From a virus, in the UHGV virus genome UHGV-0197770: 36,302 nt of DNA; one strand, written 5' to 3'. Within the stretch, counting starts at the first letter, position 1, and each line of letters starts with the position of its first letter. Below, in pieces: positions 1,201-33,327 of the stretch. Below the pieces are notes generated by a model that saw nothing but the letters and a program-made list of their open reading frames with translations, did not search any database and was not told the DNA's origin. Position numbers and translations under genes: made by a program.

Positions 1201-1833
1201 TCATTCATCGTTCGTTGCACGAACGCGCCTGATCTCCACTCTGGCAATCTGATCTGCTGGAATATAGGTTGCCAGAGCTCCCCAGTACTTATCAACCACG
1301 CCTTTATACTCTTCCCATTCGTTACTGCCTGAAGGGCTGCTGTGCGTGACGTAAAGAACCATATCGCCTTTATTCCCCAGGGTAAACGGACCGTTAGGCC
1401 ACTCTTCAAAGTTCCCTGGCAGCCGTGACATCATACCGGAACCATCGCGAAGAATCACTCTGACCTCGGTAACGCTGAAGCCTGTTTGATCAAACATTGC
1501 CTGCCATGCTGAGCTGGTATCGTCAGACCATGAAACATCATTATTCCACAGTAATCTGTACATCCATTTGCGACCGTACCTGCGCCACCACGCACCGCAT
1601 GTAACGGCACACAGAAGTGCTGGTGGTGTTGCCAGCCAGGCATTCAGACCTGCCCACATAACAGCCTGGTAAGCCATCATTGCTGTCAGGCCAAAAATCA
1701 GCGAAGAAAAAGTCACCTCAATGGGCTTGTGGTGATCCTTCAGTCCCACATTCGCAATAAAATACCCAATATAGCCACTGGTCAGGGTCACCAGTGTTGC
1801 CCATGGCAGATTTAACAACGAAACGTCAAACAT
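1201..1833 (-). CDS. Membrane protein of unknown function (about 3 N-terminal TM helices plus ~130-aa soluble C-terminal domain); terminal accessory gene
   Basis: Start chosen at MFDVSLLNL because GGGAG lies 6 nt upstream; hydrophobic segments LPWATLVTLTSGYIGYFIANVGL and VTFSSLIFGLTAMMAYQAVMWAG; lies downstream of an intrinsic terminator. Confidence 0.6.
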   Translation of the reverse strand: MFDVSLLNLPWATLVTLTSGYIGYFIANVGLKDHHKPIEVTFSSLIFGLTAMMAYQAVMWAGLNAWLATPPALLCAVTCGAWWRRYGRKWMYRLLWNNDVSWSDDTSSAWQAMFDQTGFSVTEVRVILRDGSGMMSRLPGNFEEWPNGPFTLGNKGDMVLYVTHSSPSGSNEWEEYKGVVDKYWGALATYIPADQIARVEIRRVRATNDE

Positions 1834-1871
1834 ATTTTCTCCCTGCATCCTGAATACTAAAGAGAGAGCAT

Positions 1872-1905
1872 AAAAAAAGCACGGTAAGGGGTCTACCGTG
1901 CTTTT
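1872..1905 (-). terminator. Rho-independent terminator ending the leftward early operon (bidirectional hairpin)
   Basis: Stem AGCACGGTA / TACCGTGCT (1878-1886 / 1894-1902), 7-nt loop, flanked by A7 on plus strand (U7 on minus) and TTT on plus. Confidence 0.6.
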
Positions 1906-1947
1906 ATACAATAAGGAGATTTTTGAAAGGACTTTAACAAGCAGGAA

Positions 1948-2346
1948 TTATCTGGATTTGTTAACGTCTTTCGTCTCCTCTGGCAGATCTTCATCAAACA
2001 ACCTGCCCTGCATCCGATCCAGTTCTTCTTTTCTGACCCGCTTAACCACGCTGTAGACCCACTGAAGCGAAACACCAAACTTGCGGGCCAGTTCGTGGTG
2101 GTTGCGTCCGTTAAACTCCCTGAAGATTTCCCGGTCGCGCTGACTGACCTTCCATACCATGCCCATCGGGAAATAAACGTTTTGCCCGCCCCAGACCTGC
2201 ATCATTCGGTTCGCGACGGCCTGACCAATCTGGTCGGCAATTGCGGGCTCAATATCAATAATCTCGCGAACGGTCTCAGAGGTATGCTGTGCCAGCTCCA
2301 CCAGGAGTTCCGGCCCTTTACTTCGAAACTGATTCAGGTCGCTCAT
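1948..2346 (-). CDS. Mor/C-family transcriptional activator of middle/late genes
   Basis: 132 aa with C-terminal HTH ELARKFGVSLQWVYSVVKR typical of Mu Mor/C; last gene of early operon as in Mu; GGGAG RBS. Confidence 0.7.
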   Translation of the reverse strand: MSDLNQFRSKGPELLVELAQHTSETVREIIDIEPAIADQIGQAVANRMMQVWGGQNVYFPMGMVWKVSQRDREIFREFNGRNHHELARKFGVSLQWVYSVVKRVRKEELDRMQGRLFDEDLPEETKDVNKSR

Positions 2347-2767
2347 GTTTTACTCCCGCAGCTCTGTGCTGCCACTTCTTCAGTTTCTCAATAACACTGC
2401 TTGCCTGTTCAGTATTGAGCCAGCGCAGGGCGCTGATGCCCGTTTCCCGCTTGATCCACCGCGCTAATGCATTTTCTGAACGGTCACGAACAATGCCGGC
2501 AGCAGCCATTTCAAGCCATAGCGCACGAATTTTCCTGGACTGCGGATGGTTATCCAGCGGTAAACCGGAGCTGGCTTTTCTGGCTGGTTTAACGCGAAAG
2601 CCTTTCTTTTTCATGGATTCCAGCACGCAGTTTAGTTGTGTGGTATCCATTCCTTTGGTTGAGGCTTTACCGGTCAGCCCCTGTAACATCTGGCGGTAGG
2701 TGTCTTCATCCATACCCAGTTCATTACGGGCAATATGGATAAGCTGTATCAGGCGTTTTTTCTGCAT
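2318..2767 (-). CDS. GemA-like protein (Mu gp16 family, DUF1018)
   Basis: 149 aa; N-terminal RLIQLIHIARNELGMDEDTYRQML resembles Mu GemA; sits immediately upstream of Mor as in Mu; AGGAG RBS. Confidence 0.55.
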   Translation of the reverse strand: MQKKRLIQLIHIARNELGMDEDTYRQMLQGLTGKASTKGMDTTQLNCVLESMKKKGFRVKPARKASSGLPLDNHPQSRKIRALWLEMAAAGIVRDRSENALARWIKRETGISALRWLNTEQASSVIEKLKKWQHRAAGVKHERPESVSK

Positions 2768-2768
2768 A

Positions 2769-2975
2769 TCATCTCCTTTTTTTCAGTCTGTCGGCAACAA
2801 TGTCGGTTGCAGCTGGCAGGGTGACTGGCCAGAACAACATGACGGCGGTCATGTACAGGATGTAATGCGCGGTGTCGTAGTGCCTGCCATAGCCCAGGGA
2901 ACGATGAAGTCTTGCGCTGCATGATCCTGCGTACATATACCAGAAAAGAAAACAGACAATGGTTTCAGTAGTCAT
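2769..2975 (-). CDS. Small hydrophobic protein (68 aa)
   Basis: Internal start MTTETIV preceded by GGGGAGG; two hydrophobic stretches. Confidence 0.4.
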   Translation of the reverse strand: MTTETIVCFLFWYMYAGSCSARLHRSLGYGRHYDTAHYILYMTAVMLFWPVTLPAATDIVADRLKKRR

Positions 2976-3195
2976 TCTGAATACCTCCCCATTCGATATG
3001 AATATTACGGGCAGCAATGACAGGGTCGTTATTCCACCATGCACCTGACATGTATTTTTCAACCTGTTCGCGTCCGGCAATAACACCAATTGTGATCCCC
3101 GGCCTGACGTTCTTAAAAAAGGCGCGGGCAAAAAGGTATCTGGCAGATATTCGGCAGGCTTTTAATTTCCGGCTGTTACCTGATAGCGTAATCAT
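2965..3195 (-). CDS. Hypothetical early protein (76 aa)
   Basis: GGAGG 5 nt upstream of ATG; ATGA start/stop overlap with upstream gene indicates translational coupling. Confidence 0.45.
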   Translation of the reverse strand: MITLSGNSRKLKACRISARYLFARAFFKNVRPGITIGVIAGREQVEKYMSGAWWNNDPVIAARNIHIEWGGIQNDY

Positions 3196-3875
3196 CTGGC
3201 CTCCAGTTTCTGTTGTTCCTGCCCACTGACCGGGCGGTGCAGTCTGACGTTCTGCCCTTCACGAAACCCCGCATAGCGCGAGGCGTCGCCATTGCGGCTT
3301 CTTCCCGGTTTACGCGCCCTGGTGGTTTGCGTTTGCGGGTATTTATGTTCCAGCCACTGTTGCATCAGTTCACGCTCATCATCGGTCAGGGCAAAGGACT
3401 GTATTTCACTGATAACGGCCAGTACCCAGCCTTCAGCAAACTGGTCTCCACGGCTGGTACGGGTGGCGTTTTTTATTCTTTTGTTCTGTGCGCTGATATA
3501 CTGCTGACGCGCCTTTTTCAGCTGGCGGACCAGCACTTCCCAGGTGTACGCAGCCAGTGCCGCTCGTTCCCGGTTACCGTAGAACCCCACAGACGGATGC
3601 GTGCCGGGGTGAATGATGGAGTTAACACCAAATGCCTCGCGGATGATGTTCATCAGGCCCAGCATGTAGCGCGGTGGACGGAGACTGCCTGTCGGCCAGT
3701 AATGACTGATGGTTTCATCAATATCACTCATAGCAATGTCGGAATGTGTGATGCCGTGAACATCCATCAGTTTACGGGCTCGGCGCAGTGCCAGAGCGGC
3801 CTCGTGCGGGTTGCCGGATGCGGCCAGCGCCAGCAACTTTTTCAGTTTCTCAATGTGTTTATTCTGGTCTGTCAT
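3192..3875 (-). CDS. Hypothetical early protein, DUF2786-like N-terminus
   Basis: Start chosen at MTDQNKHIEKL (ATGA overlap with upstream stop); motif IEKLKKLLALAASGNPHEAALALRRARKLM resembles DUF2786 phage proteins. Confidence 0.5.
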   Translation of the reverse strand: MTDQNKHIEKLKKLLALAASGNPHEAALALRRARKLMDVHGITHSDIAMSDIDETISHYWPTGSLRPPRYMLGLMNIIREAFGVNSIIHPGTHPSVGFYGNRERAALAAYTWEVLVRQLKKARQQYISAQNKRIKNATRTSRGDQFAEGWVLAVISEIQSFALTDDERELMQQWLEHKYPQTQTTRARKPGRSRNGDASRYAGFREGQNVRLHRPVSGQEQQKLEAR

Positions 3876-4087
3876 TGTTCTGTATCTCCGGTATTTTTCT
3901 GCCGTTTCCATGCCCGGACAGCGTCGGACAGCTCTTTCAGGCTGTATGCTGCTTTAAGCTTTTCCCATAACCACTGTGTTGTTATGTGCATCAGCAGGGC
4001 AGCCAGGGCTGCCCCCGCACTGAGGCATGTCGCCAGGCCAGTAAGAATCAGTGTCCATGCGGTGATTTCCCTGAGTATGTCAGCCAT
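3872..4087 (-). CDS. Small membrane protein (71 aa)
   Basis: GGGAGG RBS; hydrophobic core WTLILTGLATCLSAGAALAALLM. Confidence 0.5.
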   Translation of the reverse strand: MADILREITAWTLILTGLATCLSAGAALAALLMHITTQWLWEKLKAAYSLKELSDAVRAWKRQKNTGDTEQ

Positions 4088-4101
4088 TGAATGCCTCCCG
4101 G

Positions 4102-4398
4102 TTACTCGTTCGTGTAAATCACGCCCAGTCGTGCAGCCAGACGTTCCAGTTTTTTCTGTTTGTGGAAGTCAATCAGCCGGTCCATCCCCTGAAGGCGCAG
4201 TTGCTCTGTCATGATTTCCACGTCTGCCAGCTCTGCCGCGAGGTCACTTTCGCTGCCCTGTCCGTTCAGGTTGCGGGCGGCACTGGCCGCCAGTTCAGCG
4301 GCCTCTTCTGTCAGTTTCAGGGCCTGTGCGTCCGGCCCGAAACGCTGCAGGGCCAGACGGTAGAGGGCGGTGCGGGTGAGTTCGGTGTTCCGTGTCAT
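4102..4398 (-). CDS. MazG-like nucleotide pyrophosphohydrolase domain protein
   Basis: 98 aa with paired acidic motifs TEEAAELAASA and ELADVEIM characteristic of small phage MazG-like proteins; GAGGG RBS. Confidence 0.55.
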   Translation of the reverse strand: MTRNTELTRTALYRLALQRFGPDAQALKLTEEAAELAASAARNLNGQGSESDLAAELADVEIMTEQLRLQGMDRLIDFHKQKKLERLAARLGVIYTNE

Positions 4399-4407
4399 GC
4401 CGCGCCC

Positions 4408-4680
4408 TCAGTGTTTCCGGTCGACGGTGATGTTCAGGCCGCCTTCTGCAGTGGTTTCCATCCGGTACGGCACCTCATGCTCTGCCGTGTGGGTGAGTGT
4501 GTTCACCAGTACCTGCAGGGCAGCCGCCTTTCCGTTGGTCGCCACAATGGCCTGAGCGGTCATGCTGATTAGCGCCGTCAGGACGTGCTTCACATCGGTG
4601 AGGTCGCGGCATTCACACTCGTTGACATAGTGTTCAACAAGGGTTCGGGTGCGCTGTCGTGCTTCCTGTGGGGTAATCAT
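4408..4680 (-). CDS. Hypothetical early protein (90 aa)
   Basis: GGGAGGA RBS 7 nt upstream; tightly packed in operon. Confidence 0.45.
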   Translation of the reverse strand: MITPQEARQRTRTLVEHYVNECECRDLTDVKHVLTALISMTAQAIVATNGKAAALQVLVNTLTHTAEHEVPYRMETTAEGGLNITVDRKH

Positions 4681-4871
4681 TGCGAGTCCTCCCTGTCAGG
4701 GCGGGAGAATTCCATGACGGGCACGTCTGCCGAAAAATGCTGGCTGCAGTACGGGCAGACCAGGGTGACGCGTACCGCAGGGATGTGGTATTTACCGGAC
4801 ATCACGGCGATGGCGCTGTGAAAACGCAGGGCTGTTATATCCCTCTCGCACTGAATACATTTAAATATCAT
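4677..4871 (-). CDS. Small zinc-ribbon protein (64 aa)
   Basis: CxxC ... CxxC pattern (CIQCERD ... CPYCSQ); GAGGAG RBS. Confidence 0.45.
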   Translation of the reverse strand: MIFKCIQCERDITALRFHSAIAVMSGKYHIPAVRVTLVCPYCSQHFSADVPVMEFSRPDREDSQ

Positions 4872-4968
4872 GATTTAATTCTCCTCTGTTTCCGGCGTGC
4901 AGAAGCCCGCGGCGCTGACGCCGGAATAAAAAAGAAAATGTTTTTATTAAATAATTAACGTGGTGTGT

Positions 4969-5499
4969 TTACTGCACATCCTGCTCAAAAGGAATTATTG
5001 AAAAATCCTCAATGTCGCTTTTAATGGAAATACCGGGAATATTTTTCACGGCCTCTTTTTCATTCAGGATAGCGTCTTTATTTATTTCCTCTTTTACACG
5101 AATAAAGCGCTCAAGCCCCAGACGTCTCAGTAATTCAATAACATTATCCGCCCCACGGATACTGACTGATGGCGGACGGTTTCGCCACTGCACCTCGCCG
5201 GTGGTGAGGTTAGCGAACTTCACCTTCCCGTTGCCGGTCAGTTCATCACGGTGTGCCTCACACCATGTCTGAATACCGGACTGCAGTTCGGCCATGCGTT
5301 TTTTCAGGCTCTCGGTGAGCGGGGCATAACGTGCGGTGATATCGCCAATGGCGTCATTCATTTCTGTTTCAGCCCTGACCAGTTCACGTTGTGCGTCACC
5401 GAGTAGTCTGATTCCCTCAATGACCTCTTCACGTGTCCCCGGCACCCAGAGTGCTGCTGCGGCCTTGATACGTTTTGCACCTTTTGTACTTTTTGCCAT
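4969..5499 (-). CDS. gam: Gam-like host-nuclease inhibitor (Mu Gam / Ku-like family)
   Basis: 176 aa, size and early-region position of Mu Gam; conserved-looking W...GKVKF..GEVQWR core. Confidence 0.55.
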   Translation of the reverse strand: MAKSTKGAKRIKAAAALWVPGTREEVIEGIRLLGDAQRELVRAETEMNDAIGDITARYAPLTESLKKRMAELQSGIQTWCEAHRDELTGNGKVKFANLTTGEVQWRNRPPSVSIRGADNVIELLRRLGLERFIRVKEEINKDAILNEKEAVKNIPGISIKSDIEDFSIIPFEQDVQ

Positions 5500-5526
5500 T
5501 TTTTATGATTTCTCCAGTTGTGCTGA

Positions 5527-5796
5527 TTACCACAAAGATTCCGGCCACACGACGCGACAGCCGTGCAGTTCGAAAACGCCCTGACGGAAATATCCCCTGT
5601 GGTCATGTCCGGTATACAGATAACAGGCCTTTCCCTGCTCAAGCATGCGCATGCAATGCGCACTCCGGGAAACGCGGATGACAGGTTTGTTACCCCTGAT
5701 GGTGATGCTTTGTACATCCGTGTTCGTCGCCTTAAGCGCCATAATGGCTGACTGCACTTTGCTGATTTGCTGGTTGATACCTGTGGTGGATTTCAT
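5527..5796 (-). CDS. Hypothetical early protein (89 aa)
   Basis: ATG 2 nt downstream of the B-gene stop; weak AGGGG RBS. Confidence 0.4.
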   Translation of the reverse strand: MKSTTGINQQISKVQSAIMALKATNTDVQSITIRGNKPVIRVSRSAHCMRMLEQGKACYLYTGHDHRGYFRQGVFELHGCRVVWPESLW

Positions 5797-5798
5797 TA

Positions 5799-6965
5799 TT
5801 AAACCCCTTTGACAACGTCAGCGTTGACCTGTGGAACCCCGATTTCAGCGGCCAGATTCATGGCGGCTATTACCAGGTTACTGACGGCCAGCGGATACAG
5901 CAGGCTGACCATATTTTTACGATGACTTCCCGGATTGCTCAGGCGGGCACGTATGGCATCCACTGCGCTGGCGTCCATAATGTCCGTCAGTTGTTTACCG
6001 GCCCGTTGCAGTTTGAACGTCAGAAACTCTTCAAGGTTATTGTCCAGAGGCAGAAGTTCGACCACCTCACAGCGCTGAACGACTTCACGGACTTCCATAT
6101 TGCGTTCAGACAGTTTTGTCGCCAGTTCCGGCTGGCCAATCAGCACGATGGACAGCAGTTTTTTGAAACCGGACTCCAGCTCAAAAAAGCGTTTGAGGTG
6201 TTTCAGTGTCGGAATGGGCAGACTGTGGGCCTCCTCAATCACCAGAACGTGGCTGAACCCCGCCTGGCTGCTGTCTTTCAGGACGCGATGCAACTGGCGA
6301 AAGCGGGCGTCCTGACTGCGTCTGATGCTTTCCAGTGGTGCGATGGTACTGATAATGGCTTCGGCAATCGCTGCTGCCTTCAGGGTTTTCCCTTTCACAT
6401 CGTTGTCTTCCATAGCGATGATGTATGGCTCGATAACAATTACCGGCGCATTCTCGCGGTTGATACGTTCAGTCAGGTCGCGGCGCAGCGTGGATTTACC
6501 CGCACCGGACTCACCGATGACGGCCATAAACCCACCATGACGGGCTGTCTGGTACAACGCCTCACGCACGTAGCGAATATCCGGGGTGGTGAACACATCA
6601 TCAGAACCCTGCATGGCTTCGTCGGCGAATGGGTCACGGAAAAGACCAAACGCTTTTTTGGTTGCTGGAAATAACACCTGTTTTTTGAGTAACATATTCT
6701 CTTCCTCACTGAGGCTCGTTTTATCTGTGGTACCCGCTGTACGGGGCGTGGCCGCGCCCTGTACAGCATCAAAACTCTTCGTTGTATCAATCCCCTGACT
6801 TTCCAGCCAGGACGCAAGACGCCGGCGCACTTCTCCGGGGCGGGTGCGGGGCCACGCGTTATGATTCACAATCTGGGCCAGCGTGGCCTCAGAAACATCG
6901 ACAGCTCTCGCCACCACCGCCTGTGAGATACGGGCCTCTTTCAGTTGCTGCTTCAGTACCAGCAT
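5799..6965 (-). CDS. Transposition ATPase (MuB-like, AAA/TniB-type)
   Basis: Walker A GESGAGKST; N-terminal HTH; start at MLVLKQQ chosen because GAGGAGG lies 5 nt upstream; immediately follows transposase. Confidence 0.75.
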   Translation of the reverse strand: MLVLKQQLKEARISQAVVARAVDVSEATLAQIVNHNAWPRTRPGEVRRRLASWLESQGIDTTKSFDAVQGAATPRTAGTTDKTSLSEEENMLLKKQVLFPATKKAFGLFRDPFADEAMQGSDDVFTTPDIRYVREALYQTARHGGFMAVIGESGAGKSTLRRDLTERINRENAPVIVIEPYIIAMEDNDVKGKTLKAAAIAEAIISTIAPLESIRRSQDARFRQLHRVLKDSSQAGFSHVLVIEEAHSLPIPTLKHLKRFFELESGFKKLLSIVLIGQPELATKLSERNMEVREVVQRCEVVELLPLDNNLEEFLTFKLQRAGKQLTDIMDASAVDAIRARLSNPGSHRKNMVSLLYPLAVSNLVIAAMNLAAEIGVPQVNADVVKGV

Positions 6966-24532: not shown

Positions 24533-24783
24533 TGAAAGAATACCGCTATTCCGGCCCGGCCAGCGGCGTCACGCTGTCGGACGGAACCGAAATCCTGCTC
24601 TGGCCGGGGAAGACGGTTTCCCTGCCGGAGGAGCATGACTACGTGAAGGTACTGGTGGCGCTGAAACATCTGACGCCGGTACCTGAAGAGACTAAACCCG
24701 CCGGCACACCGGCTGTGCAGTCACCAAAGCGCAGAAGCAGCAGTGACAGCGAAGTGAAAACGGAGGACACCCATGGCAGCTAA
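24529..24783 (+). CDS. Hypothetical structural-module protein (84 aa)
   Basis: ATGA overlap with upstream gene; precedes sheath gene. Confidence 0.4.
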   Translation: MMKEYRYSGPASGVTLSDGTEILLWPGKTVSLPEEHDYVKVLVALKHLTPVPEETKPAGTPAVQSPKRRSSSDSEVKTEDTHGS

Positions 24784-26200
24784 CTATCTGCATGGTCCCG
24801 AAACCATTGAGGTGGAAAACGGTGCCCGCCCGGTTAAAACGGTGAAATCTGCCGTTATTGGCCTGATTGGTACCGCCCCGATGGGGGATGTCAATACGCT
24901 GGTACAGTGCCTGTCTGAGAAAGACGCAGCGGCATTTGGCAGCCAGTTCACCGGCTTTACCATTCCGCAGGCGCTGGATGCGATTTATGACCATGGTGCA
25001 GGTACCGTTCTGGTCATTAACGTCCTCGACCCGGCGAAACATAAAACGGCGATCGAGGATGAGGTGGTTACCTTTGACAAATCGACAGGGCAGGCCAGAC
25101 TGGCGCATCCGGTTGTCGCTAATGTGGTGGTGAAAAACAGTGAAGGCAGCACCTCCCACACGGCGAACACGGACTACCGTGTTGATGCGCAGGCGGGTGT
25201 GCTCACGAACCTGGGCAAGGCTATTGAGGCCGGTGGCAGCGTGAAGGTGAGCTATGAGTACGCGGACCCGTCGAAGGTGACTGCGGCGGACATCATCGGC
25301 GGGGTGAACAGCGCCGGAAACCGAACCGGCATGAAGCTGCTTAACGACAGCTTCAACCTGTACGGCTATTTCGCCAAAATTCTGATTGCGCCGGTGTTCT
25401 GCACCCAGAAGAGTGTCGCAGTTGAGCTTATCGCCATGGCAGAGAAGCTGGGCGCGGTAACCTACATTGATGCGCCTGTCGGTACCACCTTTGCACAGGC
25501 TCTGGCAGGTCGTGGCCCGGAAGGCACCATCAACTTCAATACCAGCTCCGACCGCGTCCGTCTGTGCTATCCGCATGTGAAGGTATATGACCCGGTGACA
25601 AACACAGAGCGTCTGGAGCCGCTCAGCCAGCGTGCAGCAGGTCTGCGTGCCAGAGTCGATCTGGACAAGGGCTACTGGTGGTCATCCTCCAATCAGGAGA
25701 TTCTGGGGATCACCGGCGTGGAGCGCCAGCTGTCCGCGATGATTGATGACCCGCAGAGTGAGGTGAACCTGCTTAACGAACAGGGGATCACCACGGTATT
25801 CAGCAGTTACGGCAGCGGCCTTCGTCTGTGGGGTAACCGGACGGCAGCATGGCCAACGGTCACCCATATGCGTAACTTTGAGAACGTTCGCCGCACCGGT
25901 GATGTGATCAACGAGTCCATTCGTTATTTCAGCCAGCAGTACATCGACATGCCGATTACTCAGGCGCTGATTGATGCACTGACGGAGTCGGTCAACGCCT
26001 ACGGTCGCAAAATGACTGGTGATGGTGCGGTACTGGGCTTCCGTTGCTGGTTTGATCCGGCCCGCAATCCGGAGACGGAGCTGGCCGCCGGGCACCTGTT
26101 GCTGAGCTACAAATATACGCCACCACCGCCGCTGGAGCGACTGACGTTTGAGACTGAGATCACCTCGGAATACCTGTTAACCCTGAAAGGGGGCAACTGA
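24773..26200 (+). CDS. Tail sheath protein (P2 FI / Mu L-like)
   Basis: N-terminus MAANYLHGPETIEVENGARPVKTVKSAVIGLIGTAP parallels P2 FI N-terminus; 475 aa. Confidence 0.85.
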   Translation: MAANYLHGPETIEVENGARPVKTVKSAVIGLIGTAPMGDVNTLVQCLSEKDAAAFGSQFTGFTIPQALDAIYDHGAGTVLVINVLDPAKHKTAIEDEVVTFDKSTGQARLAHPVVANVVVKNSEGSTSHTANTDYRVDAQAGVLTNLGKAIEAGGSVKVSYEYADPSKVTAADIIGGVNSAGNRTGMKLLNDSFNLYGYFAKILIAPVFCTQKSVAVELIAMAEKLGAVTYIDAPVGTTFAQALAGRGPEGTINFNTSSDRVRLCYPHVKVYDPVTNTERLEPLSQRAAGLRARVDLDKGYWWSSSNQEILGITGVERQLSAMIDDPQSEVNLLNEQGITTVFSSYGSGLRLWGNRTAAWPTVTHMRNFENVRRTGDVINESIRYFSQQYIDMPITQALIDALTESVNAYGRKMTGDGAVLGFRCWFDPARNPETELAAGHLLLSYKYTPPPPLERLTFETEITSEYLLTLKGGN

Positions 26201-26721
26201 TGTCAAAGATTGAGATAAACCGCATCACGAATGCCAACATCTATCTGGATGGTACTAACCTGCTGGGACGGGCTGAGGAAGTTAAACTCCCCGATGTCTC
26301 CATGATTATGCAGGAACACAAGGCGCTGGGGATGGTGGGTAAGGTGGAACTCCCGGCTGGTTTTGACAAACTGGAAGGCGAAATCAAATGGAACAGCTTT
26401 TACCGCGATGCGATGCTGTCTGCCGCGAACCCGTACAGGTCGCTGGCACTGCAGTGTCGTTCCAGCGTCCAGCGCTACAGCTCGCAGGGGCTGATTGACG
26501 AAATCCCGCTGGTCACCTTCCTGACGATTATGTTCAAGAAGAACCCGCTGGGGACGTTCAAACAGCACGAGAACGCCGAGTTCTCCAGTAGCTTCACCTG
26601 CACGTATATCAGACAGGTACTGGATGGTGAAGAGCTGCTGCAACTGGACTATCTGGCCAACATCTTCCGGGTCGGCGGTGTTGATCAACTGACTGACTAC
26701 CGTATCAATATCGGGGGCTGA
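26200..26721 (+). CDS. Tail tube protein (P2 FII / Mu M-like)
   Basis: C-terminus CTYIRQVLDGEELLQLDYLANIFRVGGVDQLTDYRINIGG parallels P2 FII C-terminus. Confidence 0.85.
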   Translation: MSKIEINRITNANIYLDGTNLLGRAEEVKLPDVSMIMQEHKALGMVGKVELPAGFDKLEGEIKWNSFYRDAMLSAANPYRSLALQCRSSVQRYSSQGLIDEIPLVTFLTIMFKKNPLGTFKQHENAEFSSSFTCTYIRQVLDGEELLQLDYLANIFRVGGVDQLTDYRINIGG

Positions 26722-26723
26722 CG

Positions 26724-27005
26724 GTGAGTGTTGAACTGACGGATAAAGGAGGACGATGTGCGGCACTGGGCATGTCAAATGGTACGTGGTTTACCCTCCT
26801 TGATATTCCGGGGGTGGAAACCCTTTTTAATACCCGTAAAACCAATGACCCGATTGACTGCACACGTTCAAAGGCCCGCAAACTGGCGGATTTGATTGAA
26901 GCATGGGAGCCTCCCGACCACTGGTTCTCCGGCATCGGCAAATCTGAGGGAAAGACGCTTCTCATCGCTTTCCTGCGTAACTGCAAGGGGTTTCGCACTT
27001 GCTGA
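26724..27005 (+). CDS. Hypothetical tail-module protein (93 aa, GTG start)
   Basis: Open frame directly after tube gene; no family recognised. Confidence 0.35.
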   Translation: MSVELTDKGGRCAALGMSNGTWFTLLDIPGVETLFNTRKTNDPIDCTRSKARKLADLIEAWEPPDHWFSGIGKSEGKTLLIAFLRNCKGFRTC

Positions 27006-27011
27006 CATCAC

Positions 27012-27035
27012 AGGGGCTCCGGCCCCTTCTTCTTA
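27012..27035 (+). terminator. GC-rich hairpin with T-rich tail (candidate attenuator/terminator)
   Basis: AGGGGC-TCCG-GCCCCT stem-loop followed by TCTTCTT. Confidence 0.4.
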
Positions 27036-27075
27036 ATCTCCTTTAATATCCGTCACGCGCTTCTCCCGACATACT
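27031..27075 (+). promoter_or_regulatory. Candidate late promoter (copy 3) upstream of tail chaperone/tape-measure genes
   Basis: CTTCTTAATCTCCTTTAATATCCGTCACGCGCTTCTCCCGACATACTGCC shares CTTCTTAA / CCTTTAATATC / CGCTT / TCCCG / ATACTGCC blocks with 33331-33380. Confidence 0.45.
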
Positions 27076-27102
27076 GCCCTGAACTTACACAGGAGCACAA
27101 TC

Positions 27103-27438
27103 ATGTCACAGACCCCATCCGATACTTTTAAATTGTCTTATCCCTTCACCACTGCTGCAGGCACCAGAATTGAGCTGGTTGAACTGAAACGCCTGACGGT
27201 AAAAGACCTGAAGCAGGTGCGCAAAATCAGCAAAAACCCGGCAGACTGGGACGAACCGCTGATTGCCCGCAGTACTGGTCTTCTCCCGGAAGATCTCGAC
27301 AATATGGATCTGGCTGATTACCTGCAGTTACAGAAACGATTTCAGCTCATCACGGGGATGGGTGAGAGCAACCAGGGCGCTGACGCAGGCGCAGGGGCTG
27401 CTGGCGAGATGGTTCCGGTTTCAGCCGGGGGAGATTGA
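27103..27438 (+). CDS. Tail assembly chaperone
   Basis: 111 aa directly upstream of tape measure; motif IELVELKRLTVKDLKQV typical of tail chaperones; AGGAG RBS. Confidence 0.6.
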   Translation: MSQTPSDTFKLSYPFTTAAGTRIELVELKRLTVKDLKQVRKISKNPADWDEPLIARSTGLLPEDLDNMDLADYLQLQKRFQLITGMGESNQGADAGAGAAGEMVPVSAGGD

Positions 27439-27520
27439 TGCCCTCGATACTGACGATCTGGAGATGTGGCTGGAGCAGGCTGAAGAGCAAATAAAAAGCG
27501 AGTACGGCGACAAATCATAG
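27263..27520 (+). CDS. Overlapping +1-frame ORF: probable frameshift extension of the tail chaperone
   Basis: Overlaps chaperone ORF in +1 frame, ends 76 nt before tape measure; G5 run at 27427-27431 just upstream of chaperone stop. Confidence 0.4.
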   Translation: MPAVLVFSRKISTIWIWLITCSYRNDFSSSRGWVRATRALTQAQGLLARWFRFQPGEIDALDTDDLEMWLEQAEEQIKSEYGDKS

Positions 27521-27595
27521 TACAGACAGCCGCCAGTAGCGGCTGTTCTGCGTTATTCCCTCACGTCTTTTCACCTTCCCCGGAGGTTAACCACT

Positions 27596-30547
27596 ATGTC
27601 GGGACAGTTTTCAGTCGGCGTTGTTATCGGCGGGATGATTGGCAGCACATTCCGTTCTGCAATGAGCGGTACCCGCCGTGCGCTTGATTCCCTGAGCGAT
27701 ACCTCACGCCGCCTGCAGGAACGTCAGAACGCTTTAACCCGTGCAACAGAACGTTATGGTCAACTGGGTTCTTCCCGGATGCAGCATCTCAACAGCGAGC
27801 TGCTGCGGGTAAGCCGCACCATGGAGCAAATTGAGCGCCAGCAGCGCCGTCTGTCAGCGGCATCCGCTACCAGTGATGCGCTGAAAGCTAACCGCATGGC
27901 GCTGTATGGTCAGGGGATTGAAGCGTATGGCATGGCACAGACTGTTTATCATACGGTTTCCCCTGCCGTTCAGCAGTCCATGTCTTTTCAGGACAAAATG
28001 ATTGATATGTCGATCACCGCAAAATATGACAATAAAACGCGGGATGCACTTGCCGGACAGATAAAAGGCTGGGCGCTTAAATACAATCAGTATCAGGATG
28101 AGCTGCAGGAGGCGGTGGGTTCACTCATCAGCGACAATATTGATAATGTGTCAGATATCGGTTTTCTGATGCCGGATATTGCCCGCGCGGCAACGGCAAC
28201 ACGCACGTCTGCTCAGGACTGGGCAAAAGTGGCCGCAGTCTGGCAAAACTCCCTGAAAGGTGCGGCCAGAGATTTTGGTGCCGTTCAGAATATTATGGCT
28301 TATGCCGGTGACCAGGGGTCATTTGAAATCCCGGATCAGGTCAAGTGGATGCAGTCCCTGGCCCCAATGATGGCGGGTATTGCCAATGGAAAAGAGGCTG
28401 TTGCTGAAATCGGGGCCAGTCTCCAGATAGCAAAAATCGGTGCAGGTTCCACCGACGAAGCAGCCAATAATTTTAAAAACTTTCTTACCAAAATTTTTGC
28501 CCGCGATACTCAGAAACAGTTTGCTGATCTGGGTATTGATTTGCAGGGATCTATTGCGAGTTATAAAGCTGCGGGGATCTCTCCGATTGAAGGGATGTTG
28601 AGTGTTATAGAACGTTACCTCAATGCCAAAAGCCCCGAAGCGCTGGCCGGCTTCAAATCAGCCATGAAAATAAAGAATGATACGGCAAGAGATGAGGCAC
28701 TTCAGGCTCTGGCGAAAAACTTTGGTCTGGGCGATATGTTCGCGGATATGCAGGTCATGGCATTTATCCGCCCGATGCTGGCCAACATGGACAGATATCG
28801 AGAGATCCGTGCCGGTGCTCTCAGGGCTGCGGATAACGATTTGCTTGCCAGTGCTTATGATCAGCGGCTGAAATCTCCCCTTGAAGCCACTAAAACACTT
28901 ATGGTCAGCAGTCGCGATCTGGCAATTACGCTGGGCGATCAATTAGCTCCATCTTTTATTTCTTTGACTCAGGAACTGCTTCCACTCATTCAGGGGGCAA
29001 AACACTGGGTAGCGACTCACCCGCAATTTGTCAGTGGGGCTTTTAAGCTCATCAGTGCGCTCCTTGCGATTAAGATAGCGACTGTTGGTCTCAAACTGGG
29101 GCTGAATCTCCTTATTTCCCCCTTTGTAAGTGTCTGGAAAAATGCTGTTTTACTTCGGGCCAACTGGCTTCGTCTGTCGCTCGCACTGGGGCAAGGCGGT
29201 AAGCTCCGCTGGCTGGTGACCGGATTTAGCGCCGTCGCCAGAGGAGCCAGAACACTGAGTGGCGTGCTCTCCGGGGGGCTGGTTCGCGGAATTATGCTCG
29301 CCGGACGTGCTGTTCTCTGGATTGGACGTGCGCTGATGATGAATCCCATCGGTCTCGTTATCACCGCTGTCGCGGCAGCAGCTTACCTTATCTACCGCAA
29401 CTGGGGGGCAGTCAGTGGCTGGTTTAAACAGCGCTGGGCAGACATTCAGGAAGCCTTTAACGGCGGCATTGTGGGAATTGGTAAGTTACTGATTAACTGG
29501 TCGCCGGCAGGCCTGCTCTATAAAGCCTTTGCGGCTGCGCTGAAATATTTCGGCGTTGCTCTGCCGGCAAAGTTCACCGACTTCGGTGGCCATCTTATCG
29601 ACGGTCTGATTAACGGTATCAAAAACAAATGGGGGTCGCTCAAATCCAGTGTAACCGGAATGGGTGACAGCATCAGTAGCTGGTTTAAACAGTGCTGGGC
29701 TGACATTCAGGAAGCCTTTAACGGCGGTATCGCGGGAACTGGTAAGCTGCTGATTAACTGGTCGCCGGCAGGTCTGCTCTATAAAGCCTTTGCAGCTGCG
29801 CTGAAATATCTTGGTGTTGATCTGCCGGCAAAGTTCACCGACTTCGGTGGCCATCTTGTCGACGGTCTGATTAACGGTATCAAAAACAAATGGGAGTCGC
29901 TCAAATCCAGTGTAACCGGAATGGGTGACAGCATCAGTGGCTGGTTCAGTGAAAAGCTGGGTATTCATTCGCCGAGCCGCGTGTTTATGGGCTTTGGTGA
30001 CAATATCGCGCAGGGGGCCGCCATTGGCCTGCAGCGGACCACTCCGCTTGCAGCTCTGGCCGGGCAGCGAATGGCCAGTGAACTGCTCCCCAGAATGCCC
30101 GTGAGCATTCAGGGGCCAGAAATACGGGATAACACTTCAGGTGTTCGCTTCAGTATGCCGTTGCCCGATATCAACGGGTTTATGTCGTCTGCTAAAAATG
30201 CGATCGGAGCCGTAATCAATAGTTTGTCTTCCATGCCCGCTATCCCGCTCTCCACCCGGGCATCGATTTTACCAGGGCAACGTCTGGCAAATGAGATGAC
30301 ACCGGATGTTCCCCGTATCCCCTCGCCTGAAATCATGGCTGCCGGATATTCAGGCCGTGGTGCAGCTGCAACCGGCGGTGGAACGTCTGGTGGTATCCAG
30401 GTCAGCTTTAATCCTCAGTTTTTCCTCAATGGCAGGGAAACCACAGCGCCTGCAGGACTGACTGGTGCCCTGAATATGAGTCTGCATGAGCTGGAAAAAA
30501 TGCTGGAGCGTCTGCTGGCTCAGAAACAACGTAAGGAGTACCGCTGA
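27596..30547 (+). CDS. Tail tape measure protein
   Basis: 983 aa, alpha-helical/low-complexity, after chaperone pair; contains internal tandem duplication. Confidence 0.85.
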   Translation: MSGQFSVGVVIGGMIGSTFRSAMSGTRRALDSLSDTSRRLQERQNALTRATERYGQLGSSRMQHLNSELLRVSRTMEQIERQQRRLSAASATSDALKANRMALYGQGIEAYGMAQTVYHTVSPAVQQSMSFQDKMIDMSITAKYDNKTRDALAGQIKGWALKYNQYQDELQEAVGSLISDNIDNVSDIGFLMPDIARAATATRTSAQDWAKVAAVWQNSLKGAARDFGAVQNIMAYAGDQGSFEIPDQVKWMQSLAPMMAGIANGKEAVAEIGASLQIAKIGAGSTDEAANNFKNFLTKIFARDTQKQFADLGIDLQGSIASYKAAGISPIEGMLSVIERYLNAKSPEALAGFKSAMKIKNDTARDEALQALAKNFGLGDMFADMQVMAFIRPMLANMDRYREIRAGALRAADNDLLASAYDQRLKSPLEATKTLMVSSRDLAITLGDQLAPSFISLTQELLPLIQGAKHWVATHPQFVSGAFKLISALLAIKIATVGLKLGLNLLISPFVSVWKNAVLLRANWLRLSLALGQGGKLRWLVTGFSAVARGARTLSGVLSGGLVRGIMLAGRAVLWIGRALMMNPIGLVITAVAAAAYLIYRNWGAVSGWFKQRWADIQEAFNGGIVGIGKLLINWSPAGLLYKAFAAALKYFGVALPAKFTDFGGHLIDGLINGIKNKWGSLKSSVTGMGDSISSWFKQCWADIQEAFNGGIAGTGKLLINWSPAGLLYKAFAAALKYLGVDLPAKFTDFGGHLVDGLINGIKNKWESLKSSVTGMGDSISGWFSEKLGIHSPSRVFMGFGDNIAQGAAIGLQRTTPLAALAGQRMASELLPRMPVSIQGPEIRDNTSGVRFSMPLPDINGFMSSAKNAIGAVINSLSSMPAIPLSTRASILPGQRLANEMTPDVPRIPSPEIMAAGYSGRGAAATGGGTSGGIQVSFNPQFFLNGRETTAPAGLTGALNMSLHELEKMLERLLAQKQRKEYR
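29420..29941 (+). repeat. In-frame tandem direct repeat, 2 x 261 bp (87 aa each), inside tape measure gene
   Basis: TGGTTTAAACAG...GACAGCATCAGT unit recurs at 29420 and 29681 with about 95 percent identity; third unit starts at 29942 and then diverges. Confidence 0.9.
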
Positions 30548-31431
30548 TGTTTGCCGTACTGGGTGATATTGAGTTTGAGCTGATTACCTACTGGGACGGC
30601 TTCGAGGCCACGTTCGGCGTCGATTATGCGGAGCATGCCCGCATCGGGGGTAAGCCTGGCCTGCAGTTCGTCGGCGACAGGCTGGACGAAATCCAGATAA
30701 CTCTGGTTTTCCATCAGCATTATTGTGTACCCGATGTGGAGCTGGCGAGACTGCGAACAGCCATGAAAGCCCATCAGGCACTGGCGCTGGTCTTCGGCAA
30801 CGGTGACTATCGCGGCTGGTTCGTGATTACCGATGTGACTGCAACCAGCGAGCAGACTGACAGTACCGGCAACGTGCTGGCTGTCAGTGCCACCGTGTCT
30901 CTCCGGGAATACACCGGTGACCCGAAAAATCCTCTGCAACCACCGGCAATACGCACGAAGCTCCCGGGTGTCGGGGCGGTCTCCGGTGCCATTCCTTCAC
31001 CTTCCGGGGTGGCGCAGTTCATCCGCAACGGCGTCAACTATGCGAAACAGGCGCAGTCTGTACTCCAGACCACTATCAGCGCCGTTCGGGTGACACAGAA
31101 AATGAAGGATAACCCCGTTGTCGCACTGACCCGTGTGCCGGGGCTGATGAGCGGACTGGGTAATATCTCCGGGGCTCTGGGGAAAAGTGTTCCGGCGTTT
31201 AACGCACTCTCTGAATCCATGCCCGATGCCATCAGTCTGGCCAGAACAGCCAGCGAAGCAGCCACGTATGTACAGCAGGCACAGTCTGCGCTGAGTGGTG
31301 TGGACAAAAGAAATATTGCAGGTGCTCTGGATACCGTTTCCGGGCAGCTTAACGCCGCCGGCACAGCATTCAACCGCATATCTCCGGGATTAAGTGCAAT
31401 GGCCGCCAGAATACTGACGAGGAGTGTGTGA
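30547..31431 (+). CDS. Tail protein (P2 gpU-like N-terminus / Mu N-like DNA circularization protein)
   Basis: N-terminus MFAVLGDIEFEL parallels P2 gpU MMMVLGLFVFML; follows tape measure. Confidence 0.6.
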   Translation: MFAVLGDIEFELITYWDGFEATFGVDYAEHARIGGKPGLQFVGDRLDEIQITLVFHQHYCVPDVELARLRTAMKAHQALALVFGNGDYRGWFVITDVTATSEQTDSTGNVLAVSATVSLREYTGDPKNPLQPPAIRTKLPGVGAVSGAIPSPSGVAQFIRNGVNYAKQAQSVLQTTISAVRVTQKMKDNPVVALTRVPGLMSGLGNISGALGKSVPAFNALSESMPDAISLARTASEAATYVQQAQSALSGVDKRNIAGALDTVSGQLNAAGTAFNRISPGLSAMAARILTRSV

Positions 31432-31643
31432 TGTTTCTTGAACATGTTACCCGTGACGGAGAGCGCTGGGATTCGCTGGCATGGCAGTACTACGGTGACC
31501 CGCTGGGCTATCCCCGGATTATTGCCGCCAATCCGCACGTGGCCATCACGCCGGTGCTGCCCTCCGGGCTGTTGTTACTGATCCCGGTGATTGAGGCTGA
31601 AGAAGCCCGTACAGAAGAGGATATTGCCCCATGGCTGAGATAA
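31428..31643 (+). CDS. Tail protein X-like (LysM-like)
   Basis: 71 aa; WQYYGD...IIAANPHVA...LLLIP resembles P2 gpX. Confidence 0.6.
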   Translation: MMFLEHVTRDGERWDSLAWQYYGDPLGYPRIIAANPHVAITPVLPSGLLLLIPVIEAEEARTEEDIAPWLR

Positions 31644-32803
31644 ACAGCACTGCGCAAGTCACATCAGCGTTAACCGGCGTCAGCGATGTGCTGACACCGG
31701 TGTTCACTTTGTGGTATCTGCAGAAAAACATCACCTCTGATATCGCGCCTTATGTCACCCGTGTGACCTGGAGCGATAACATCAAAAATGAGTCCGATAC
31801 CATTGAGGTGGAGCTGGACGACACCGATGGCCGCTGGCTGGATAAATGGTATCCGGGCAAGGGTGACACGCTGACGCTGAAAATGGGCTATCAGGGCGAG
31901 AAGCTGCTGTCCTGCGGTACGTTCTCTATAGACGAGATCGAAGTGAGTTCGCCCGCTTCCGTTGTTTCTATCCGTGGGGTGGCCACCTCGGTTAACAGTG
32001 CCCTGCGGACTAAAACCAGTCGTGGTTTTGAGAACACCACGCTGGCAGCTGTTGCGGGGCGGATTGCCAGAAAGCACCGACTGAAACTGGTGGGCAGCAT
32101 TGAGTCCATCAGAATCGACCGGGTGACCCAGTATGCTGAAACCGACGTGGGTTTTCTGCGCCGGCTGGCCAGCGAGTATGGTTATGCAGTGAAAGTGGTC
32201 AGTGACCAGCTGATTTTTTCTCATCTGGCCACACTGCGCAGTCAGGAGCCGGTCAGGCAGTTAAAACCGCAGGATGTGGCCCGCTTTTCCCTGCGTGACA
32301 CCATCAACCGGGTCTATAAATCTGCAAAGGTAAAACACCAGAAAAGCAGCAGTAAAAAACTGATCGTCTACGAAGCTGATGGTGGTACCCGTGAAAGCGA
32401 CAAAAAGCTCAAAGGTGGTAAGGTTACCAGCGCTGACTCACTTAAAGTTAACAGCCGCGTCAGCGACCCGGACAGTGCCCGGATTAAAGCGGATTCAGCA
32501 CTGGCCAGACATAACGAATACCAGCAGAACGGCTCCCTGACGCTGACGGGAACACCTCAACTGACAGCAGGCAACAAAATTGAACTGGTGGGTTTTGGGC
32601 AGTTATCTGGGCCATGGCTCATAACCACTGCCCTCCATGCGTTTGAGCGTAACAGCGGCTACACCACAGAGCTGGAAGTGGCACGGGGGCCGGTCACACA
32701 GGGCAAGGCGAAGAAAGGTAAAAAAACCGGCAAAACCCGGACGCTGACCATCTATAAACCGGACGGCAGCACGTCCACAGTAATAAGAGAGAAGAAAAAA
32801 TGA
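31631..32803 (+). CDS. Baseplate hub / late control D-like protein (P2 gpD / Mu P-like)
   Basis: 390 aa (P2 gpD is about 387 aa); position after X. Confidence 0.65.
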   Translation: MAEINSTAQVTSALTGVSDVLTPVFTLWYLQKNITSDIAPYVTRVTWSDNIKNESDTIEVELDDTDGRWLDKWYPGKGDTLTLKMGYQGEKLLSCGTFSIDEIEVSSPASVVSIRGVATSVNSALRTKTSRGFENTTLAAVAGRIARKHRLKLVGSIESIRIDRVTQYAETDVGFLRRLASEYGYAVKVVSDQLIFSHLATLRSQEPVRQLKPQDVARFSLRDTINRVYKSAKVKHQKSSSKKLIVYEADGGTRESDKKLKGGKVTSADSLKVNSRVSDPDSARIKADSALARHNEYQQNGSLTLTGTPQLTAGNKIELVGFGQLSGPWLITTALHAFERNSGYTTELEVARGPVTQGKAKKGKKTGKTRTLTIYKPDGSTSTVIREKKK

Positions 32804-33327
32804 CTGGTGTCACTCGTCAGGTCGGTACGGTCAGTGCCGTTGATGCCGACAGGGTTCAGGCCCGCGTTCGTCTGCCTGAATGCGATAACCTGCGCACAAA
32901 CTGGCTTAACGTGCTGCAGCGCAATACCCAGGATAACAAAGATTACTGGCTCCCTGACGTGGGGGAGCAGGTTGAGGTGCTGCTCGATGCCAACGGCGAG
33001 GATGGTGTTATTCTGGGCGCGGTGTATTCAGACGTCGATAAACCACCGTTCAGTGATAAAAACGTCCGGGGCACGAAGTACGCTGATGGCGCGGAGTTCA
33101 GTTATAACCGCGCGACCCATACGCTGACGGTCAGAGGAGGTATTGAGCGTATCGTGGTGGAGGTTGCCGCCGATATCTCACTGGAAGGGAAAAGCATTGA
33201 CCTCACGGGAGTTACCACAATCAACGGCAACGCGACACTCAACGGTGATCTGGAAATCAACGGAAGCGCCCATGCAACGGGTGACATATTTGCCGATGGT
33301 CAGAACTCTAATCACCATTCCCATTGA
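32800..33327 (+). CDS. Baseplate spike protein (P2 gpV-like)
   Basis: WLPDVGEQVEVLLDANGEDGVILGAVYS parallels the P2 gpV core (W..VGEQV..L....G.....VLG.YS). Confidence 0.7.
   Translation: MTGVTRQVGTVSAVDADRVQARVRLPECDNLRTNWLNVLQRNTQDNKDYWLPDVGEQVEVLLDANGEDGVILGAVYSDVDKPPFSDKNVRGTKYADGAEFSYNRATHTLTVRGGIERIVVEVAADISLEGKSIDLTGVTTINGNATLNGDLEINGSAHATGDIFADGQNSNHHSH

Follow-up and report, generated by a model that had tools for sequence, protein, structure and literature searches.

A tandem 87-codon duplication in the tape measure gene of putative BcepMu-like Escherichia coli prophages and its natural variation in copy number

Engineered deletions and duplications in the tape measure protein (TMP) of phage tails change tail length proportionally, by ~0.145-0.15 nm per residue (PMC5099701, citing Katsura & Hendrix 1984), and in phage TP901-1 the termini of the TMP are not all part of the ruler (PMC5099701). 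A previous study showed that the TMPs of mycobacteriophages have undergone natural duplication and loss of 11-aa units (Belcaid, Bergeron & Poisson 2011, PMC3271669). Here, a tandem repeat of two 87-codon units in the TMP gene of the virus genome UHGV-0197770 was analysed; the whole stretch of 36,302 nucleotides is referred to as the window. We consider it probable, at about 0.85, that the repeat is an old in-frame duplication of an 87-residue TMP module that was seeded at a short direct repeat and has since become variable in copy number by unequal recombination, with a gain in tail length for each unit that would follow by analogy.

The repeat is like the cases of the lambda gpH and TP901-1 ruler experiments (PMC5099701) in that an internal in-frame TMP segment is duplicated or deleted, from which a proportional change is expected. 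Those changes were, however, engineered in the non-contractile tails of siphophages, whereas the window represents a natural polymorphism in a contractile P2-type tail. With the mycobacteriophage TMPs (PMC3271669) the repeat shares in-frame length variation by tandem units and a history recorded in paralogue-specific substitutions, but the units are of 11 aa in the mycobacteriophages and of 87 aa, in only one to three copies, in the TMP lineage of the window. No 33-bp periodic array was detected by Tandem Repeats Finder in positions 27000-33000. The repeat works in the manner of the mycobacteriophage TMP length variation and lies outside its 11-aa-unit class. The tail module is shared with Escherichia phage PhiKM and with the BcepMu-like E. 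coli prophage found in ST131, IAI39 and CE10, and their TMP genes are 96.6-100% identical to that of the window at the DNA level. A literature search on PhiKM and on the TMP of the E. coli BcepMu-like prophage yielded generic mentions of Bcepmuvirus prophages in ST131 and gut isolates, a Vibrio phage paper that proved not to be pertinent, and no description of copy polymorphism.

A single array was reported by Tandem Repeats Finder in the same 6-kb interval, at 29412-29946, with a period of 261, 2.0 copies, 93% matches, 0% indels and a score of 951. Pairwise alignment and our own count showed the two copies (Table 1) to be arranged head-to-tail and to differ by 17 mismatches in 261 nt (93.5% identity, no indels) and in 8 amino acids. 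The 261 bp correspond to 87 codons, and the reading frame is kept across both units; in a six-frame check of a unit, the TMP frame was the sole open one. Chance is not a realistic source of 244 in-register matches in 261. A first-pass annotation of this DNA had described an in-frame tandem duplication of 87 codons inside the TMP open reading frame (ORF), and this description is upheld by Tandem Repeats Finder, by the ORF itself, by its matches to PF10145, TIGR01760 and PHROG 28 and by the neighbouring gpE-type chaperone and gpU/gpD genes. The identity of about 95 percent given there is slightly too high. Its placement of the repeat at 29420-29941 denotes this array read 8 nt further along; as the array extends 13 nt into a third unit, either register is valid. 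A minus-strand ORF at 29486-29968 (160 aa) was considered as a gene and rejected, as the unit is open in the TMP frame only and the substitutions fit that frame.

The first-pass annotation had also pointed to a single unit multiplied during assembly as an alternative source of the array. Such an expansion or mis-join would fit with the sequencing gap inside the repeat in the PhiKM record, with the many database TMP proteins that stop at contig edges here and with an IMG/VR scaffold (L040) in which ~7 units are joined through an 'n' and a G-run. Against it stands a gene that is 100.0% identical over 2952 nt to that in the complete chromosome NZ_CP141083.1, and dozens of other, independently assembled complete genomes with 99.6-99.9% TMP-gene identity have the same two-copy structure. 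The longest in-register run of identity between the copies is 38 nt; since the copies differ at intervals of 38 nt or less, the two-copy structure assembles unambiguously even with short reads. The frame is furthermore intact in all three size classes described below. An assembly error is excluded for practical purposes as the source of the two-copy array, and we give this explanation next to no credence.

Of 5426 complete E. coli genomes, 636 had a match to the TMP gene, among them the ST131 reference EC958, IAI39 and CE10, and the lengths of the matched intervals fell into classes 261 nt apart. Copies were counted by scanning representatives of the length classes with unit 1 of the window. 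Genes of 2691 nt (896 aa) held one copy (L002 from UPEC129, L011, L107 and the IMG/VR loci L028 and L048), genes of 2952 nt (983 aa) held two (the window, L006 from O25b:H4 ST131, L010 and many IMG/VR loci) and genes of 3213 nt (1070 aa) held three (L003, L004, L005, L012, L038 and L043). Every TMP ORF translated uninterrupted in the one-, two- and three-copy loci tested. Among the best 120 homologues of the protein, 26 were of 896 aa, 43 of 983 aa and 17 of 1070 aa, the set also including contig-edge fragments, and no protein in it exceeded 1070-1084 aa. Rough frequencies were obtained from two evenly spaced samples of 60 each out of the 636 matches: two-copy alleles made up 41 and 39 of the 60 (65-68%), three-copy alleles 11 and 14 (18-23%) and one-copy alleles of the close lineage 2 and 1 (~2-3%), and diverged single-copy alleles were seen four times in each sample. 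The scaffold L040 (IMGVR_UViG_2740892433_000005, 4817-6766), with its ~7 units at 97-99%, was rejected as a high-copy allele, as the join at ~5680-5700 looks like a scaffolding artefact.

One unit each is present in the distant E. coli alleles L007 (825 aa) and L008 (821 aa) and in Klebsiella phage KP12 (821 aa). When a hidden Markov model of the unit was applied to ~100 related loci, drawn from a one-genome-per-species collection and from IMG/VR, one highly conserved unit was found in ~60 relatives; these included Pantoea, Mixta, Trabulsiella, Pseudocitrobacter, Buttiauxella, Intestinirhabdus and Pectobacterium as well as phage KP12 and IMG/VR contigs. Since a single unit is found in the ~60 more distant relatives, which belong to other Enterobacterales, one unit is taken as the ancestral state. 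Relatives lacking the duplication, proposed for comparison in the first-pass annotation, do exist: the more distant relatives have one unit, and the close one-copy alleles proved to be secondary deletions, as set out below. In single-copy relatives of several genera the lone unit is bracketed by a direct repeat of 10-15 nt coding for SxWF, and the junction of the duplication coincides with this short repeat. The ancestral TMP gene held one unit between two such repeats, and the first duplication may have arisen when these repeats, 261 bp from each other, mispaired by slippage or recombined through their short homology, an origin suggested by the position of the junction on the repeat.

Between copy 1 and copy 2, 9 synonymous and 8 non-synonymous differences were counted, which gives a synonymous divergence (dS) of 0.168, a non-synonymous divergence (dN) of 0.041 and a dN/dS of 0.24 by the method of Nei-Gojobori; both copies are therefore under purifying selection. 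At the 17 copy-distinguishing sites, and especially at unit positions 101-223, the first unit was of type 1 and the last unit of type 2 in every two- and three-copy allele examined. The units are orthologous across alleles, and the duplication therefore happened once. In the flanks, dS between the window and the ST131-type allele was 0.09 on the N-terminal and 0.03 on the C-terminal side, between the window and PKF4 0.14 and 0.01, respectively, and between the window and single-copy relatives 0.22-0.50 or more. Measured by dS, the split between the copies equals or exceeds in depth that among the two-copy alleles (0.01-0.14), and it is shallower than that to the single-copy relatives. From the shared copy-specific sites and the flank dS, the duplication is dated between the split from the 821/825-aa alleles and the radiation of the two-copy alleles. 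It occurred in the ancestor of the E. coli 896/983/1070-aa group, and both copies have been retained under purifying selection ever since.

A recent duplication had been proposed in the first-pass annotation from the near-identity of the copies; such an event would be all but confined to this phage or strain. The absence of indels at 93.5% identity agrees with that proposal, as does the occurrence of one-copy alleles among close relatives (L002, L011 and L107). The same units with the 17 copy-specific differences are, however, present in many genomes, including alleles with diverged flanks (dS up to 0.14); the inter-copy dS is itself too deep; and the close one-copy alleles are hybrids of type 1 and type 2 with derived states of both copies, which makes them deletions and not ancestors. 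The two units were also found in relatives with 11-19 differences per 261 nt between the copies, an identity comparable to that in the window or below it; that annotation had named such relatives as the mark of an ancient event. A recent and private origin is hardly credible on these grounds, and an old duplication is preferred.

The depth of dS could also have another source. If two single-copy alleles that had already diverged made the duplication by exchanging unequally at the 13-nt repeat, much of the 6.5% divergence between the copies would predate the event, which would then be younger than dS suggests. The TMP gene is indeed mosaic: its N-terminal 605 codons (27596-29410) show a dS >1 and a dN of 0.42 against GABEEC10 and KP12, whereas the unit and the C-terminus are conserved in the same comparison, with a dS of 0.2-0.5. 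A 26-aa patch at aa 545-570 (29228-29305) sets window-type alleles apart from those of the ST131 type as one block and swaps among alleles, and 7 of the 17 inter-copy differences cluster at unit positions 29-77. No sampled single-copy allele favours one copy over the other, however, as copy 1 differs from them at 29-35 sites and copy 2 at 27-32 sites, and derived states are present in both copies. The two-copy allele is widespread and hence not strain-recent either way. Exchange between diverged alleles is held to be rather improbable, and duplication of one unit within an ancestral gene remains the preferred origin.

The first-pass annotation had called the site recombination-prone, and in this it was right: alleles of one, two and three copies with hybrid units occur in complete genomes. 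The middle unit of the three-copy alleles is of type 2 at its 5′ end and of type 1 at its 3′ end, as results when two-copy genes pair out of alignment and cross over unequally. The change of type lies at unit positions 6-21 in L012 and L043, at 67-75 in L003, L005 and L038 and at 77-101 in L004, and from these three different intervals at least three separate expansion events are deduced. The close one-copy alleles (L002, L011, L028, L048 and L107) are the reciprocal hybrid, being of type 1 up to position 101 and of type 2 from position 122. By outgroup polarity they carry the derived copy-1 states at positions 29, 59 and 75 together with the derived copy-2 states at 122, 140, 143 and 186. With derived states of either copy joined in one unit, they are secondary deletions, and the possibility that they represent the ancestral state was rejected. 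The first units of the ST131- and PKF4-type alleles have a type-2 tract at positions 29-77, which reflects patchy exchange between copies or alleles that may have run in either direction. Many further combinations of the eight diagnostic residues were seen at the protein level, some of them from assemblies of uncertain quality. Once present, the 261-bp units served as substrates of ordinary unequal homologous recombination and gene conversion, from which the three-copy alleles and the one-copy hybrids came.

The three size classes, the at least three independent expansion breakpoints and the hybrid deletions might also be expected of a fast-switching contingency locus that toggles tail length adaptively. 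Copy number is, however, stable within clones. The ST131-type alleles (~30 per sample, in identity bands of 97.2% and 96.9%) had two copies in all cases sampled, and a three-copy TMP gene was found at 100% identity in several strains that are unrelated. For a 261-bp repeat at 93% identity, ordinary RecA-type exchange is the route of recombination, and no dedicated machinery is evident. An adaptive switch is very unlikely, and the size classes are attributed to ordinary unequal recombination.

Other length changes are found nearby in the gene and its relatives. An in-frame duplication of 564 bp (188 aa) at ~97% identity was seen in L089 (4508-5635), and one of 705 bp (235 aa) at ~90% identity in L096 (~4499-5800); each covers the hydrophobic region and the 87-aa module, and they are independent events in distant relatives. 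A segment of 71 aa in the TMP of the window (aa 823-893, 30062-30274) is absent from the 821/825-aa relatives L007, L008 and KP12. Over its first 21 residues (GQRMASELLPRMPVSIQGPEI) it resembles the adjoining stretch at 30275-30334 (GQRLANEMTPDVPRIPSPEI), and it has the look of a second length indel in the gene, one that is older and has diverged. Based on the L089 and L096 duplications and the 71-aa segment, the C-terminal third of this TMP family is regarded as a site of recurrent length change.

Some points weigh against the reading of an old, copy-variable and length-determining module. Dating by dS is soft, as gene conversion lowers dS and exchange between diverged alleles raises it. The copy-number frequencies come from two samples of 60 in a genome collection that is heavily clonal, with many ST131. 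Several additional one-copy hybrid classes, known from the protein level only, come from assemblies of uncertain quality and could include collapsed repeats. As for function, the unit is situated in the C-terminal 40% of the TMP beside hydrophobic segments, and TMP ends are not wholly ruler in other phages (PMC5099701). The sole structural support is a single-sequence AlphaFold model of aa 560-830, which is almost all helix and of low confidence (mean pLDDT, the predicted local distance difference test score, of 44). A sequence search of the PDB with the TMP found no relative.

Tail tube rings rise ~4 nm each. Every 87-residue unit would add ~12.6-13 nm of tail, or roughly three extra rings of tube and sheath, and three or four distinct tail lengths would then be expected to segregate in the lineage. 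That an extra unit gives a longer tail is plausible and reasonable by analogy with the ruler experiments. The module could instead belong to a part of the TMP outside the ruler, for example one for membrane insertion or close to the baseplate, in which case copy number would be neutral or affect ejection and tail length would be unchanged. The location of the unit, between the long hydrophobic region and the region of the conserved GIHSPSRVF C-terminal motif, would suit such a role, as would the TP901-1 termini that are not all ruler (PMC5099701). Internal in-frame deletions and duplications of the TMP have, however, scaled tail length in every tested system (PMC5099701; Katsura & Hendrix 1984 cited there), and the L089 and L096 duplications over the same module suggest that the region tolerates length change. 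We consider an unchanged tail length unlikely, and a tail that lengthens with each unit is the expectation adopted here. It is a much bolder proposal, and a doubtful one, that a natural TMP allelic series of 896/983/1070 aa, with 821/825 aa in sister lineages, exists in one inducible E. coli prophage lineage (that of ST131, IAI39, CE10 and others) with steps of ~13 nm in tail length, is regenerated time and again by unequal recombination and is kept because the different tail lengths suit different thicknesses of envelope or capsule. If true, the series would amount to Katsura's ruler experiment carried out in nature, its phenotype being a selectable one.

The features of the window that bear on the repeat are listed in Table 1. 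The TMP matched PF10145 (PhageMin_Tail) over aa 159-340 (E 4e-20, 73 bits against a cutoff of 33.2), TIGR01760 (tape_meas_TP901; E 2e-16, 59.9 bits against a cutoff of 28.8) and PHROG 28, 'tail length tape measure protein' (E 8e-134). The position of the gene is as expected for a TMP, after the chaperone pair and before the baseplate-hub genes; in relatives, an overlapping 'GpE family' frameshift partner is annotated by RefSeq at the chaperone gene. The repeat units are located in the C-terminal third of the protein, after the long hydrophobic region, and are followed by the widely conserved GIHSPSRVF region, for which matches lie at the C-terminus of many TMP PHROGs.

Table 1. Coordinates in the window of the repeat, the TMP gene and the neighbouring tail genes.
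Feature	Position	Strand	Basis or description
Repeat unit copy 1 (type 1)	29412-29672	+	codon-aligned 29414-29674, aa 607-693, SGWFKQRW...GMGDSI
Repeat unit copy 2 (type 2)	29673-29933	+	codon-aligned 29675-29935, aa 694-780, SSWFKQCW...GMGDSI
13-nt TCAGTGGCTGGTT (codes SGWF)	29934-29946	+	same 13 nt as at the start of copy 1 (29412-29424); short direct repeat on either side of the unit, at the duplication junction
Tail tape measure protein (TMP) gene, 983 aa + stop, holds the repeat	27596-30547	+	PF10145, TIGR01760, PHROG 28/794/58, product so named by RefSeq in identical genomes
Contractile tail sheath gene	24773-26200	+	PF04984/PF17482
Tail tube gene	26200-26721	+	PF04985
Tail assembly chaperone (gpE-like), directly upstream of the TMP gene	27103-27438	+	PF10109 Phage_TAC_7, E 5.5e-21
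gpU-like tail/baseplate-hub gene, downstream of the TMP gene	30547-31431	+	PF06995
gpD-like tail/baseplate-hub gene, downstream of the TMP gene	31631-32803	+	PF05954

The tail module is like that of P2 (FI, FII, E/E+E', T, U, D) in gene order and in the Pfam families of the TMP neighbours, but the backbone of the window is of the Mu/BcepMu type. The window also encodes an rve transposase (PF00665, PHROG 310) and a MuB-like transposition ATPase (PF13401, PHROG 296), together with a Mu F-like minor head protein (PHROG 220), terminase, portal, protease, capsid and baseplate proteins. The nearest isolated phage was Escherichia phage PhiKM (PQ738613), classified as Bcepmuvirus, with 96.6% identity over the TMP gene. 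Judged by its gene content, that is by the transposase, the MuB-like ATPase, the Mu-type head genes and the proximity to PhiKM, the element is a BcepMu-like (Mu-type transposable) prophage of E. coli with a P2-type contractile tail.

The kind of event described here is well known, a change in the copy number of TMP units being one of the ordinary sources of variation in phage tail length. The repeat reveals no new mechanism and is of modest interest as a sequence-resolved case of natural TMP length change, in which a short direct repeat seeds a duplication and unequal crossover afterwards adds and removes 261-bp units. Natural strains with one, two and three copies are suited for tests of the ruler rule in a contractile P2-type tail. 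On the practical side, the repeat breaks or collapses short-read assemblies, as evident from the PhiKM gap and the contig-edge fragments, and it misleads annotation, two intact three-copy genes being called pseudogenes in RefSeq. Because it disturbs both assembly and annotation, TMP length is unsafe for naive typing of these prophages.

In the PhiKM record (L001, PQ738613.1) the TMP gene is split by a run of N at ~4914-5240, exactly in the repeat, and its copy number is not readable. The two genes in question, at 1501-4713 in both L003 (NZ_CP146591.1) and L004 (NZ_OZ547150.1), are given by RefSeq/PGAP as fragments of pseudogenes ('incomplete; partial in the middle of a contig'). Each is a 3213-nt ORF without an internal stop, and the labels are probably an annotation artefact arising from the extra unit. 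An E. coli-type two-copy TMP gene was also found on an 8.2-kb contig with a coverage of ~7 in the assembly of 'Arthrobacter sp. GMC3' (L013/L034, NZ_PJIO01000028.1), most likely as a contamination of this actinobacterial assembly. In the one-copy lysogen MLI114 (L107, NZ_CP117013.1) the annotation marks the chaperone gene upstream of the TMP gene (8-343) as a pseudogene interrupted by a stop codon, and the prophage of this strain may be defective.

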